Shown: piece by piece, positions 26,002 through 32,000 of the stretch
Layout of the letters: each line of letters begins with the position of its first letter
How positions within the stretch are numbered: the first letter of the stretch is position 1
DNA from: Coprobacillaceae bacterium
GTDB lineage: Bacteria; Bacillota_I; Bacilli_A; Erysipelotrichales; Coprobacillaceae
Assembly: GCA_963675515.1 (NCBI GenBank)
Contig: OY776328.1
Span: 390,001 to 422,000, forward strand
Length of the DNA stretch: 32,000 bases
Direction of reading: 5' to 3'
The notes under the pieces: model-generated
What the model was told of the DNA's origin: nothing
The model's input: only the letters and a program-made list of their open reading frames with translations
Databases searched by the model: none
Position numbers and translations under genes: made by a program

Positions 26002-26030
26002 TTGACATTGTTTGCCCCTGGATATATGAT
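26002..26030 (+). promoter_or_regulatory. sigma-A-type promoter of the nif operon
   Basis: TTGACA (26002-26007), 17-nt spacer, TATGAT (26025-26030), about 90 nt before the nifH ATG. AT-rich upstream region. Confidence 0.6.
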
Positions 26031-26119
26031 GTAAATGCGAAATGGAAAAACGTTCGCAAGAAAAATATCATACTATTATTGGTATCGAAAAGTCTTTAAT
26101 GAAAAGGAAGGTAAAGATT

Positions 26120-26938
26120 ATGAGACAGGTTGCGATTTATGGTAAAGGTGGTATTGGGAAATCAACTACCACACAAAATTTAACTGCTGGATTGGCTGAC
26201 ATGGGTAAAAAAATCATGATTGTTGGTTGTGATCCAAAAGCGGATTCTACCAGACTGGTTTTAGGTGGTTTGGTTCAAAAAACAGTACTGGATACTTTAA
26301 GAGATGAAGGCGATGACATCGAATTAGAAGAAGTACTGAAAACAGGATTTAAAGATATTAAAGGTGTAGAATCAGGTGGACCTGAACCAGGTGTAGGTTG
26401 TGCTGGACGTGGTATCATCACTTCAATCAACTTATTGGAACAATTGGGTGCATATGAAGCTGATCTTGATTATGTATTCTACGATGTATTGGGGGACGTA
26501 GTTTGCGGTGGGTTTGCGATGCCTATCCGTGAAGGAAAAGCCCAAGAAATCTATATCGTATGTTCTGGAGAAATGATGGCATTATACGCAGCAAACAACA
26601 TTGCTAAAGGTATTGCCAAATATGGTAAAAACGGAACTGTACGTTTAGGTGGATTAATCTGTAACTCACGTAAAGTAGATAGAGAAGATGAATTGGTTGA
26701 AGCGGTTGCTAAACGTTTAGGAACTCAAATGATCAAATTCGTACCTAGAGATAACGCTGTTCAAAGAGCTGAGATCAACAAACAAACAGTAATCGAATTC
26801 AGCCCGGAAGAACCACAAGCAGAAGTATATCGTGACTTGGCAAGAAGAATTGACAGCAACGAATTATTCGTAGTTCCAAATCCAATGTCAATTGACGAAT
26901 TAGAAGCTATCTTGATGGAATATGGTCTGTTAGACTAG
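26120..26938 (+). CDS. nifH: nitrogenase iron protein NifH
   Basis: [20 protein letters not shown] (P-loop), [4Fe-4S] Cys ligands in VGCAGRGI and [10 protein letters not shown], and switch regions conserved. GGAAGG RBS before ATG 26120. The ORF is open from 26042. Confidence 0.97.
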
Positions 26939-26960
26939 TTTAACCAGGGGGAAATAATTT

Positions 26961-27284
26961 ATGTTAATGGTAAGAGCGATTGTAAGACCTGAAAAGGTGA
27001 CTGAAGTAATGACTGAATTGGCTGAAGCTGGTTATCCAGCTATCACCAAAATGGACGTATTCGGTCGCGGTAAACAAAGAGGTATCAAAGTTGGAGATTA
27101 CGTATATGATGAAATCCCAAAAGAAATGTTATTGGTTGTTTGTGATGACTTTGATAAAGACATCATTACTAAAATTGTCTTGAGAGCTGCAAAAACTGGA
27201 ACTGGAAACTTCGGAGACGGAAGAATTTTCATCTCTCCTGTTGAAGAATCATATGTAATCAGCACCGGATCAGCAAGTTTATAG
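26961..27284 (+). CDS. nifI1: PII-family nitrogenase regulator NifI1
   Basis: 107 aa PII fold (MVRAIVRPEK...FGRGKQRG...GDGRIFISPVEE). Position between nifH and nifD. Confidence 0.9.
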   Translation: MLMVRAIVRPEKVTEVMTELAEAGYPAITKMDVFGRGKQRGIKVGDYVYDEIPKEMLLVVCDDFDKDIITKIVLRAAKTGTGNFGDGRIFISPVEESYVISTGSASL

Positions 27285-27302
27285 TAGAAGGGGTGAATGC
27301 AG

Positions 27303-29297: not shown

Positions 29298-30670
29298 TGT
29301 TAGATCAAACACCAAAGAAAATAATGGAAGACAGACATGTCACCATCAACCCTTGTAAAACATGTGAACCTGTAGGTGCGATGTTTGCAGCATTAGGGGT
29401 AGAGAACTGTATGCCACACAGCCATGGATCACAAGGTTGCTGTTCATATCACCGTACAGTTCTGTCTCGCCATTTCAAAGAGCCAGCTATGGCTACTTCT
29501 TCATCATTTACTGAAGGTGCTTCAGTATTCGGGGGGAGAAGCAACCTGACGGCTTCGGTTAGAAATATCTTCGATATCTATAACCCGGAAATCATTGCCG
29601 TTCATACAACTTGTTTGTCAGAAACAATCGGGGACGACTTGGAAAACTACATCATGGACTTGGAAATCCCTGAAGGTAAGACTGTGCTTTATGCGAGTAC
29701 ACCTTCATATGAAGGATCTCAAATCCAAGGTTTCTCAAACATGCTGGTTGGTTTCATGAAATACATGACCAAAAAAGCTGACGTGAAAAACGGCAAAACT
29801 GCCATTTTCCCAGGATGGGTTAACCCAGGTGATGACCGCGAACTCAAAAGAATCGCGAACTTGATGGGTGTGAGCTATCTGTACTTCCCAGACCATGAAG
29901 GTGTCTTGGAAATGCCGATGAGCGGAAAATACGAATACTTCCCTGAAGGTGTTGGTACTCCAAGTGCCGATATCGCAGCTTTAGGTGGTGCCAACCAAGC
30001 TATCGCTATGGGGTATATCGCAAGTGCCGAACCTGCTGAGTATTTGGAAAAAAACCATAAGGTGCCATTCAACCTGATTCCGATGCCAGTAGGTGTTGGA
30101 TTGACTGATAAATACGTTATGGCTTTACGTGACATCTCTCATCAAGAAACACCGAAAGTGTTGGAAGATGAACGTGGACGTTTGGTGGATTTGATGTTGG
30201 ATTCACATGCTTATACATACAACAAGAAAGTTGCGATTTTCGGTGACCCTGATGTGGTTCATGGATTTACTTCACTGGCGCTGGAAATGGGAATGATTCC
30301 TAAATATGTGATCACAGGAACTCCTAAATCTTCTTTCGAAAAACAAATCAAAGAATTGTTCGACCAATACGGTGTTGATAGTTCAGAGTGTGTAATCAAA
30401 GCCGATACAGACTTGTTCTACTTGCACCAATTGATCAAAAACGAACCAGTTGATCTGTTATTGGGAAACTCATACGGTAAGCAAATTGCCAAAGCTGAAG
30501 ATATTCCATTTGTCAGAATGGGATTCCCGGTATTGGACCGTTATGGTGATTCAATTCAAGCAACTGTCGGATATGCTGGGGCGATCCGATATGTTGAAAA
30601 AATTCTGGACAAATTGATGGATAGAATGGACGAAGTTGCCGCAGACGAAGATTTCGAATTAGTAATGTAA
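29297..30670 (+). CDS. nifK: nitrogenase MoFe protein beta chain NifK (short N-terminus)
   Basis: P-cluster Cys in NPCKTCEP, HGSQGCCSY and HTTCLSETIGDD. 457 aa. TAATG overlap with nifD. Confidence 0.96.
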   Translation: MLDQTPKKIMEDRHVTINPCKTCEPVGAMFAALGVENCMPHSHGSQGCCSYHRTVLSRHFKEPAMATSSSFTEGASVFGGRSNLTASVRNIFDIYNPEIIAVHTTCLSETIGDDLENYIMDLEIPEGKTVLYASTPSYEGSQIQGFSNMLVGFMKYMTKKADVKNGKTAIFPGWVNPGDDRELKRIANLMGVSYLYFPDHEGVLEMPMSGKYEYFPEGVGTPSADIAALGGANQAIAMGYIASAEPAEYLEKNHKVPFNLIPMPVGVGLTDKYVMALRDISHQETPKVLEDERGRLVDLMLDSHAYTYNKKVAIFGDPDVVHGFTSLALEMGMIPKYVITGTPKSSFEKQIKELFDQYGVDSSECVIKADTDLFYLHQLIKNEPVDLLLGNSYGKQIAKAEDIPFVRMGFPVLDRYGDSIQATVGYAGAIRYVEKILDKLMDRMDEVAADEDFELVM

Positions 30671-30690
30671 TAATTATTGCTGTTGTTTGT

Positions 30691-30716
30691 AGCCGAAGAG
30701 ACAAAATTCTTCGGCT
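30691..30716 (+). other. intercistronic stem-loop between nifK and nifE
   Basis: AGCCGAAGAG / TTCTTCGGCT 10-bp stem (one G-U), 6-nt loop, no U-tract. Lies 20 nt after the nifK stop and 28 nt before the nifE ATG. Confidence 0.5.
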
Positions 30717-30744
30717 GCAAATTTATTAGAAGGAGGAATGCTCA

Positions 30745-32000
30745 ATGGTTAATACAATTAACAAAAATATCCTGGATGATCGTGAAAAGCATATAAAGAC
30801 AAAGCAGACTGGTGGCTGTGGCGGTGATGGAATGCACTGTGACACAAACTCTGTCTCTGGTTCGGTAAGCCAAAGAGCTTGCGTGTATTGTGGCGCAAGG
30901 GTTGTCTTGAATCCGATTACCGATGCCTATCATATCGTCCATGGACCTATTGGGTGTTCTAGTTATACATGGGATATCAGGGGAAGTCTTACCAGCGAGG
31001 AAGACATCTTCAGAAACAGTTTCTGCACGGATCTGCGGGAAACCGACATCATCTTCGGAGGAGCCGACAAGCTGGAAAAGGCAATTGACGAACTTTGTGA
31101 AAAACAAAGTCCCAAATTGGTGTTCGTTTACCAGACATGTATTGTCGGAGTCATCGGAGACGACGTTGAAGCGGTCTGCAAAAGAGCTGAAGAGAAGTTC
31201 CACATACCTGTCATACCAGTCAAATCACCAGGATTTTCTGGAAACAAGTCGACTGGATATAAAATGGCATGTAATGCCATCATGCAACTGCTGATGCCTT
31301 ACAAGGACATTCAAAAAGTCAAGGGTGTCAACATCCTGGGCGATTTCAACCTTGCGGGTGAAATGTGGATTATCAAAAATTACCTGGAAAAAATAGGGGT
31401 CAATGTAGTCTCTACGTTTACCGGTGATGCCAGTCATGACAACATGATTGAAGCTCCCGGGGCCACCTTAAATATAGTTCAATGTGCCGGTTCATCAACC
31501 TATCTGGCAAACAGAATGGAAGAAGAGTTTGGCATTCCTTTTATCAAGGTGAGTTTCTTTGGAATCGAGGACACGACCAACTCCCTGATCAGGATTGCTG
31601 AGGCTCTTGGAGATGAGAAGGCAAGAAGCAAAGCGGTCGAATTCTGTTCGACCGAAGGGAAGAAAGCCCAAGAGGCTATCGACAAATACCGCATGAACCT
31701 TGAAGGTAAAAAAGCGGCGATTTATGTAGGAGGTGGCTTCAAGGCCATCTCGCTGATCAAACAGTTCAATGCCGTGGGGATGGATACCGTACTTGTCGGC
31801 ACCCAGACCGGAAAAAAAGACGACTATGAAATGATCGAGAGTCTGGTCAACGATGACACGGTCATTCTCGATGACGCCAATCCGGCGGAACTCGAAGCGT
31901 TCATGATTGAAAAGAGCGCCGATATACTGGTTGGGGGAGTCAAAGAGCGGCCGCTGGCATACAAGCTGGGTGTCGCCTTCTGTGACCACAACCATGAAAG
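30745..32000 (+). CDS. nifE: nitrogenase FeMo-cofactor scaffold protein NifE (3' end beyond window)
   Basis: Not in the ORF track because there is no stop in the window. ATG 30745 follows AGGAGG. Translation MVNTINKNILDDREKHI...RACVYCGARVVLNPITDAYHIVHGPIGCSSYTWDIRGS...VFVYQTCIVGVIGDDVEAVC...NIVQCAGSSTYLA is NifD/E-fold with NifE-type Cys pattern. Open to position 32000. Confidence 0.9.
   Translation, partial: MVNTINKNILDDREKHIKTKQTGGCGGDGMHCDTNSVSGSVSQRACVYCGARVVLNPITDAYHIVHGPIGCSSYTWDIRGSLTSEEDIFRNSFCTDLRETDIIFGGADKLEKAIDELCEKQSPKLVFVYQTCIVGVIGDDVEAVCKRAEEKFHIPVIPVKSPGFSGNKSTGYKMACNAIMQLLMPYKDIQKVKGVNILGDFNLAGEMWIIKNYLEKIGVNVVSTFTGDASHDNMIEAPGATLNIVQCAGSSTYLANRMEEEFGIPFIKVSFFGIEDTTNSLIRIAEALGDEKARSKAVEFCSTEGKKAQEAIDKYRMNLEGKKAAIYVGGGFKAISLIKQFNAVGMDTVLVGTQTGKKDDYEMIESLVNDDTVILDDANPAELEAFMIEKSADILVGGVKERPLAYKLGVAFCDHNHE

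Follow-up and report, generated by a model that had tools for sequence, protein, structure and literature searches.

A clostridial-type molybdenum nitrogenase gene cluster, apparently acquired laterally, in a chromosome of the Coprobacillaceae

Introduction

How does a set of nitrogenase (nif) genes of clostridial type come to lie in a chromosome of the Coprobacillaceae, a family of the order Erysipelotrichales? The question is raised by a stretch of 32,000 nucleotides (nt) of contig OY776328.1 (GenBank assembly GCA_963675515.1, positions 390,001 to 422,000 of the forward strand), here called the window and numbered from its first letter. An earlier note, written from the letters of the window, had recognised a nif operon at its right-hand end. 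The follow-up analysis indicates that this end very probably carries the promoter and the first six genes of a molybdenum (Mo) nitrogenase cluster of clostridial or Lachnospiraceae type, which was acquired laterally and is maintained under selection in a Coprobacillaceae chromosome.

Lateral transfer of nif genes among anaerobes is a familiar theme. In a 2021 survey of 963 genomes with nifHDKENB, the Firmicutes came from Bacilli, Clostridia, Negativicutes and Tissierellia only, with no Erysipelotrichia, and all of the surveyed Bacilli except Desulfuribacillus were in Cluster I (PMC8399215). Other nif surveys leave the Erysipelotrichia unmentioned, and in the full-text literature no relevant report was found that combines Erysipelotrich- terms or Coprobacillaceae with nifH, nifD, nitrogenase or diazotroph. 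Public metagenome-assembled genomes (MAGs) already contain the sequences. The novelty therefore appears to be in the host lineage and the insertion; the enzyme and its presumed mechanism are already known.

The nif genes and the predicted enzyme

Positions 26120-32000 of the forward strand code for nifH, nifI1, nifI2, nifD and nifK and for nifE up to codon 418, all co-directional and intact. This gene order, proposed in the earlier note, is upheld by the open reading frames (ORFs) and by family models. The nitrogenase Fe protein gene, nifH (26120-26938, 272 amino acids (aa)), lies in an ORF that opens at 26042; the ATG at 26120, preceded by the ribosome-binding site AGGAAGG, was chosen as its start and matches the 272-aa gene calls of relatives. 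The genes do not begin at 26002, as the note had them, since that position is the -35 hexamer of the predicted promoter. Two regulators of the PII family (PF00543) are encoded between nifH and nifD: nifI1 (26961-27284, 107 aa) and nifI2 (27297-27683, 128 aa). The alpha and beta chains of the MoFe protein, nifD (27696-29297, 533 aa) and nifK (29297-30670, 457 aa), were assigned by alignment to the Clostridium pasteurianum chains. The sixth gene, nifE (30745 to beyond 32000), encodes the alpha-like subunit of the scaffold for the iron-molybdenum cofactor (FeMo-co). The note's 'complete-looking' goes too far for the operon, as the window ends inside nifE.

The NCBIfam models for NifH (TIGR01287, 454 bits with a cut-off of 394) and NifE (TIGR01283, 563 bits with a cut-off of 505) are passed, as is the nitrogenase component I alpha subfamily model TIGR01862 by NifD (568 bits with a cut-off of 486). 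NifH aligns end to end (residues 1-269) with the C. pasteurianum Fe protein 1CP2 (E=4e-135). NifD is collinear over residues 4-525 with the MoFe alpha chain of that species (4WES/1MIO, E=2e-206, 58% identity), and residues 1-456 of NifK align with residues 1-457 of 1MIO_B (E=2e-166, 54% identity). NifD carries the clostridial insertion of about 50 residues after residue 376; chains of the Azotobacter vinelandii type align in one stretch only up to that residue. NifK has a short N-terminus, its 457 aa comparing with 458 aa in C. pasteurianum and about 523 aa in A. vinelandii. Both features had been named in the note, and the alignments agree.

Every metal-cluster ligand that the note listed in NifH, NifD and NifK was found where it had been placed. 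NifH has the P-loop GKGGIGKS at residues 8-16 and the [4Fe-4S] ligands Cys94 (in CAGRG) and Cys129 (in VVCGGF). The P-cluster ligands are present in NifD (Cys52, Cys78 and Cys144) and in NifK (Cys23, Cys48 and Cys106). The FeMo-co ligands Cys262 and His482 of NifD, together with the catalytic Gln181/His185 pair, align with the corresponding C. pasteurianum residues.

These ligands bear on whether the genes could encode a vanadium (V) or Fe-only nitrogenase, or a nitrogenase-like reductase (Nfl/Group IV or Bch/Chl), in place of a Mo enzyme. An AnfO-like gene in the cluster of relatives would fit such an enzyme, as would scores slightly below the equivalog cut-offs for NifD (632.4 bits against 653.55, TIGR01282) and NifK (406.7 bits against 427.3, TIGR01286). 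However, the VnfD, AnfD, VnfK and AnfK models give only 271-309 and 249-287 bits, with cut-offs of 823-874. The start of nifK overlaps the stop of nifD (TAATG), and there is therefore no room for a vnfG or anfG gene for a G subunit. All FeMo-co and P-cluster ligands are present, and identity to the solved Mo enzyme is 54-58%. An alternative enzyme was rejected as extremely improbable, and the note's designation of a Mo-type enzyme is retained.

By these alignments the gene cluster is a clostridial-type Mo-nitrogenase, Raymond Group II or, equivalently, nifH cluster III. The note's 'Group II/III' was right about the anaerobe type; the label merges two nomenclatures, in which Raymond Group II corresponds to nifH cluster III.

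By homology to the C. pasteurianum enzyme, the NifH dimer would hold its [4Fe-4S] cluster on Cys94 and Cys129 and pass electrons, driven by ATP, to a NifD2K2 tetramer. There the P-cluster would be held by alpha-Cys52/78/144 and beta-Cys23/48/106, and FeMo-co, the site of N2 reduction, by alpha-Cys262 and alpha-His482. FeMo-co would be built by NifE together with NifN-B. The two PII proteins, NifI1 and NifI2, may switch off NifDK when fixed nitrogen is available, as their methanogen counterparts suggest. In the window's genome nifN-B and nifV probably follow downstream, as they do in relatives, and the host is predicted to fix N2.

The host

The rest of the window encodes an alanine racemase, an 11-gene tRNA array, tryptophanyl-tRNA synthetase (TrpRS), a Spx/ArsC-family protein, RluA, NadK, a CYTH protein and FtsW. 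The best named relatives of TrpRS are from Thomasclavelia, Coprobacillaceae, Coprobacillus and Erysipelotrichales, at 75-78% identity, and the named relatives of the pilus protein PilT are all from Erysipelotrichales. This backbone shows synteny with the 2.6-Mb chromosome OY780959.1, a Coprobacillaceae bacterium MAG, and NCBI taxonomy places the Coprobacillaceae within the Erysipelotrichales. On the strength of these relatives the host is assigned to the Coprobacillaceae (Erysipelotrichales), and it is uncultured. The earlier note had described an Erysipelotrichia-type backbone, with which TrpRS and PilT agree; it had also allowed that the host might be a clostridial taxon already known to fix N2, and the same two proteins place it in the Coprobacillaceae/Erysipelotrichales instead.

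Relatives and origin of the nif genes

At 90% identity the NifD of the window falls in a cluster of five members: the window's contig, OY780959.1, a 2.57-Mb contig of ERZ21878204 and two Logan contigs. The loci compared below are L001 and L082, the nif loci of the OY780959.1 and ERZ21878204 genomes, and L083, the Logan SRR23823845 contig. Beyond this cluster the next proteins are at most 81% identical, and the named ones among the closest are from Lachnospiraceae or Anaerotignum. A single ranking holds for all six Nif proteins: Coprobacillaceae (88-99%), then Lachnospiraceae, Oscillospiraceae and others, Desulfovibrio and Bacteroidota. Identity to the Lachnospiraceae proteins is 84-91% for NifH, 69-77% for NifI1, 57-64% for NifI2, 78-82% for NifD, 74-82% for NifK and 74-80% for NifE. 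A scan of metagenome contigs for NifE gave a closest match of 77%.

A neighbour-joining (NJ) tree of NifD plus NifK was built from 53 taxa and 982 columns with 200 bootstraps. In it the four Coprobacillaceae sequences form a single clade (200/200), which joins a Lachnospiraceae clade of Faecalicatena, Muricomes, Anaerocolumna and Butyrivibrio (200/200) and is nested inside the Lachnospiraceae in 131 of the 200 replicates and sister to them in 67. Ancient vertical inheritance of nif in the Bacilli was considered and rejected.

The gene content of the relatives extends the comparison past the end of the window. In L001 and L082, nifE is followed by nifN-B (892-901 aa), a ferredoxin gene, nifV-omega, nifV-alpha, a PqqD-like gene, an AnfO-like gene and a gene for a 327-aa protein. 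The same 13-gene order is collinear in Faecalicatena, Muricomes, Anaerocolumna and other Lachnospiraceae, where the PqqD-like gene is often missing. Because gene content and order in the Lachnospiraceae loci are nearly identical, transfer of the whole block is argued. The nif cluster appears to have come by lateral transfer, in one block, from a Lachnospiraceae-like donor.

Positions 17119-21244 of L001/L082 encode, among these, a 102-aa thioredoxin-like 2Fe-2S ferredoxin, the 104-aa PqqD-like protein, the 205-aa AnfO-like protein and the 327-aa protein, which has no family match. The genes downstream of nifN-B are mostly kept at the same positions in the Lachnospiraceae loci L003-L012. The presence of an AnfO-like gene within a Mo-only cluster of the relatives is puzzling.

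A second lineage of Bacilli with clostridial-type nifH, nifD, nifK and nifE was seen in two Sporolactobacillus MAGs (L042 and L044). Their NifD is 66-67% identical to that of the window, and they branch among Clostridia in the NifDK tree. In both, nifI1 and nifI2 were not detected, and in L044 a fused nifN-B homologue was not detected either.

Composition and selection

The G+C content at third codon positions (GC3) rises along the nif genes, from 0.27 in nifH through 0.30 (nifI1), 0.36 (nifI2), 0.39 (nifD) and 0.40 (nifK) to 0.52 in nifE. In 21 backbone genes of the window, excluding the pilin gene, it is 0.49-0.70. The same step between backbone and nif is found in L083. The nif clusters of Lachnospiraceae have a GC3 of 0.32-0.46, like that of their own flanks. 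The low GC3 of the nif genes fits a foreign origin with incomplete amelioration.

A step of this kind would also be produced if an assembly or binning error had joined a Lachnospiraceae nif contig to a Coprobacillaceae backbone. However, the same pilus-nif junction is present in L083, a short-read contig from an independent run, and is therefore no assembly artefact. Moreover, the nif genes are only about 80% identical to those of any Lachnospiraceae, and form their own clade with those of two other, megabase-scale Coprobacillaceae chromosomes. A chimera was dismissed as having next to no probability.

Every nif gene has a ratio of nonsynonymous to synonymous divergence (dN/dS) of 0.015-0.056, both between the window and L083 and between the window and L001. 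It follows that the nif genes are maintained by strong purifying selection, to which the cluster would have been subject since its arrival from the Lachnospiraceae-like donor. Synonymous divergence (dS) is itself lower in nif than in the backbone. Between the window and L083 it is 0.2-0.5 for nif and 0.9-1.5 for adjacent backbone genes; between the window and L001/L084 it is 0.8-1.5 for nif and 1.6-2.5 or saturated for the backbone. In both comparisons nif dS is a similar fraction of backbone dS, about 0.4, so that a slow synonymous rate in nif and a recent exchange of the cluster are not distinguishable.

The insertion site

In both the window and L083 the type IV pilus cluster is followed by a gene for a 250-aa protein, a gene for a 141-aa protein and then nif. 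In three genomes the site is empty: OY780959 (L086), the ERZ21878204 genome (L087) and GCA_028698185.1 (L088), the last named 'Erysipelotrichaceae bacterium', with a PilT 95% identical to that of the window. In these a gene for a 239/247-aa protein directly joins a Na/Pi cotransporter gene. The window and L088 are homologous up to 24538, just past the stop codon of the 250-aa gene. The insertion would therefore lie after 24540, between the pilus cluster and the position of the Na/Pi cotransporter gene in relatives, with its left edge at 24541-25106 (reverse strand).

A terminator-like hairpin (24555-24576, forward strand) stands at this edge. It is followed by the gene for the 141-aa protein (24681-25106, reverse strand), which is acidic and without a Pfam or NCBIfam match. 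This gene is present only in the window and L083, that is, where nif occupies this site. Its dS (1.14) and GC3 (0.49) are nearer to the backbone values than to those of nif.

OY780959 and ERZ21878204 have a nif cluster of their own about 1.7 Mb away from the empty site, behind a helix-turn-helix (HTH)/periplasmic-binding-protein (PBP)-like regulator and modABC. Nucleotide homology between the window and L001 (83%) starts only at 25972, just upstream of the nif promoter. The nif-bearing L083 and the nif-less L088 are 87% identical in nucleotide sequence, and either is 80-82% identical to the window. As L083 is thus nearer to L088 than to the window, there has been either a clean loss in L088 or repeated arrival.

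The first of these corresponds to one ancestral acquisition followed by vertical descent, with relocation in one branch and deletion in the L088 lineage. This has close to an even chance as the detailed history of the laterally acquired cluster. The nif tree, ((window, L083), (L001, L082)), agrees with the backbone relationships, and the equally low dS ratio in both comparisons would be expected if nif had a slow synonymous rate of its own. Set against this, the two nif locations have no flanking genes in common, and L088 shares its empty adjacency with the outgroup genomes while being the closer relative of L083; a single acquisition therefore needs a clean deletion that restored the ancestral junction.

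Repeated arrival would mean that a mobile nif island was inserted or exchanged at least twice among Coprobacillaceae relatives that had already diverged, a history that can be proposed tentatively. It is favoured by two unrelated chromosomal locations, a precise empty site in three genomes, a donor-like GC3, and nif dS values well below those of the backbone, both against L083 and, where the backbone is saturated, against L001. Yet the left junction, and the sequence up to 10 kb from nif in L001/L082, show neither an integrase or transposase gene nor a tRNA target or direct repeat; the insertion's right end is beyond the window, and codon bias can depress dS. When filled and empty sites were aligned across the junction, no att-like repeat was seen, and blastx of 24541-26041 gave no pseudogene remnants of modABC or transposases. 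In its strongest form, the cluster of about 13 genes would be a mobile cargo block that moved recently between or within Coprobacillaceae genomes. This is unlikely, although it would explain the two sites, the empty site inside a nif-bearing clade and the synonymous divergence two to three times below that of the flanks.

The earlier note had suggested 'an old lateral acquisition'. That it is lateral is supported by the tree, the empty-site comparison and codon composition; the word 'old' goes further than these data.

Transcription signals and intergenic sequences

The best match to a sigma-70/SigA-type promoter in the region lies at 26002-26030 (forward strand, TTGACA-17-TATGAT, 11/12 matches). 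It is kept in all four Coprobacillaceae nif loci (the window, L083, L001 and L082), and transcription of nif would start from it. A 16-bp perfect palindrome, TAATAAAATTTTATTA (25970-25985, forward strand), lies 17 bp ahead of the -35 hexamer as a candidate operator. Nucleotide homology to the L001 and L082 nif clusters sets in at this palindrome (25972). A different palindrome is carried at the equivalent position in L001 and L082. The nifH leader carries the inverted repeat GCGAA-N11-TTCGC at its predicted 5' end (26037-26057, forward strand), and the three related nif loci have kept this leader, repeat included. Nowhere in the window is there a match to the Bacillus TnrA/GlnR box TGTNAN7TNACA, and an Rfam search of the 860-bp upstream region and the nif leader returned no family.

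A strong stem-loop is found between nifK and nifE (30685-30722, forward strand), with a 15-bp stem, -26.2 kcal/mol and z = -5.3; L001 also has it (-22.5 kcal/mol, z = -5.1). It may act as a partial terminator or as a transcript-stabilising element, so that structural and assembly genes could differ in transcript abundance.

An AT-rich non-coding stretch of about 860 bp (25107-25969) separates the 141-aa gene from the nif promoter; it has no pseudogene remnant and hardly any conservation, even against L083. On its minus strand there are strong promoter-like matches, for example at 25517-25488 and 25398-25369, both TTGACA-18-TAGAAT.

Points against the reading and the case for a relic

The proposal of a functional, laterally acquired nitrogenase cluster has several observations to contend with, besides the two equivalog scores given above. 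Since nifE is cut by the end of the window, the insertion's right-hand boundary lies past 32000, as nifN-B and nifV would. The trees are NJ trees of two proteins, and nesting within the Lachnospiraceae is supported by just 65%. The low GC3 could partly be expression-linked codon bias; it climbs along the operon, from nifH towards nifE, and the pilin gene has a similarly low value (0.26). No molybdate transporter adjoins nif in the window, unlike in L001/L082.

Some of these points would also suit a decaying or incomplete relic that no longer fixes N2, for instance one in which nifN-B or nifV was lost downstream or Mo uptake is missing: the window stops in nifE, modABC is not beside nif, and the close relative L088 is without nif at this site. 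However, the six visible genes are intact with all of their ligands, the dN/dS values are those of selected genes, promoter and leader are conserved, and the relatives have the full nifHDKE-NB-V set. A relic is accordingly improbable, and a maintained Mo-nitrogenase cluster is the preferred reading.

Other features of the backbone

The tRNA array (8095-9073, forward strand, 11 genes) is the best-conserved stretch of the backbone in comparison with OY780959 (89-100% nt identity). It holds three tandem, equal-scoring tRNA-Gly(UCC) genes at 8644-8717, 8745-8818 and 8837-8910.

The type IV pilus cluster (15924-23669) looks complete, with genes for pilin, PilC, PilM, two small proteins, PilB, PilT and prepilin peptidase. 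Its PilB carries a c-di-GMP-binding N-terminus of the MshEN type. The cluster is fast-evolving, PilT being 67% identical to its OY780959 orthologue compared with 86% for TrpRS, and the GC3 of the pilin gene is far under that of neighbouring genes. In the ERZ21878204 genome the pilin gene and pilC are separated by a Transposase_mut (IS256-like) gene (L085 3133-4329 / L087 3629-4825), which is missing from OY780959 and the window.

Elsewhere, three tandem genes of the phage integrase family and a group II intron reverse transcriptase gene are present in L081 (ENA ERZ21869602, positions 3741-8565), which is syntenic with the window at 11700-11800. They sit between rluA and the Spx-like gene, and nothing is found at that place in the window. 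The L081 genome is that of a close relative, with a TrpRS 94% identical to the window's.

Implications

The cluster would add the order Erysipelotrichales (class Erysipelotrichia in NCBI, Bacilli in GTDB) to the likely diazotrophs. The taxon assignment of nifH cluster III amplicons from anaerobic habitats would be affected, because such sequences are otherwise called Lachnospiraceae or Clostridia. The comparison of an empty site with two filled locations would also provide a clean, datable case of transfer of a whole nif cluster between the Clostridia and an Erysipelotrichales lineage. If the block is indeed mobile, Gram-positive anaerobes would have a transmissible 'nitrogen-fixation island', and diazotrophy would extend to the Erysipelotrichales. 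The understanding of nitrogenase itself is unchanged.

Comparison with known systems

Compact Mo-nitrogenase operons with a sigma-70-type promoter are found in other Bacilli (in the GTDB sense), namely as nifBHDKENX-hesA-nifV in Paenibacillus, the classical diazotrophs among the Bacilli. The Paenibacillus enzymes belong to Group I and lack the NifD insertion, and their operon has no nifI1/nifI2 but a separate nifB in first place, nifX and hesA; gene order and phylogeny disagree with those of the window, where nifI1 and nifI2 are present (PMC8399215). No nifB lies upstream of nifH in the window, that stretch being non-coding.

Two PII paralogues encoded between nifH and nifD are also a feature of Methanococcus maripaludis. 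In methanogens, NifI1 and NifI2 bind NifDK and switch nitrogenase off in the presence of fixed nitrogen, with a response to 2-oxoglutarate; their counterparts in Erysipelotrichales and Lachnospiraceae may do likewise.

The layout of C. acetobutylicum and C. beijerinckii, reportedly described by Chen et al. in 2001, is nifH-nifI1-nifI2-nifD-nifK-nifE-nifN-B-nifV-omega-nifV-alpha. The two PII genes between nifH and nifD are shared with it, as are, in the relatives of the window, the fused nifN-B and the split nifV. The relatives' clusters differ from it in the addition of the ferredoxin-like, PqqD-like, AnfO-like and 327-aa genes.

Outside the Coprobacillaceae, the closest systems are the nif clusters of Lachnospiraceae (Faecalicatena contorta, Muricomes intestini, Anaerocolumna xylanovorans and MAGs; L002-L012 and L047), which have the 13-gene order and a similar GC3. 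They differ in host order and class and in their unrelated flanking genes, and the Coprobacillaceae form a separate, well-supported clade. With the Mo-nitrogenase of C. pasteurianum (1MIO/4WES and 1CP2) the predicted enzyme shares its subunit architecture, all cluster ligands, the insertion of about 50 residues in NifD and the short N-terminus of NifK. It differs in that identity is only 54% for NifK and 58% for NifD, and in that the host belongs to the Erysipelotrichales and not to the Clostridia.

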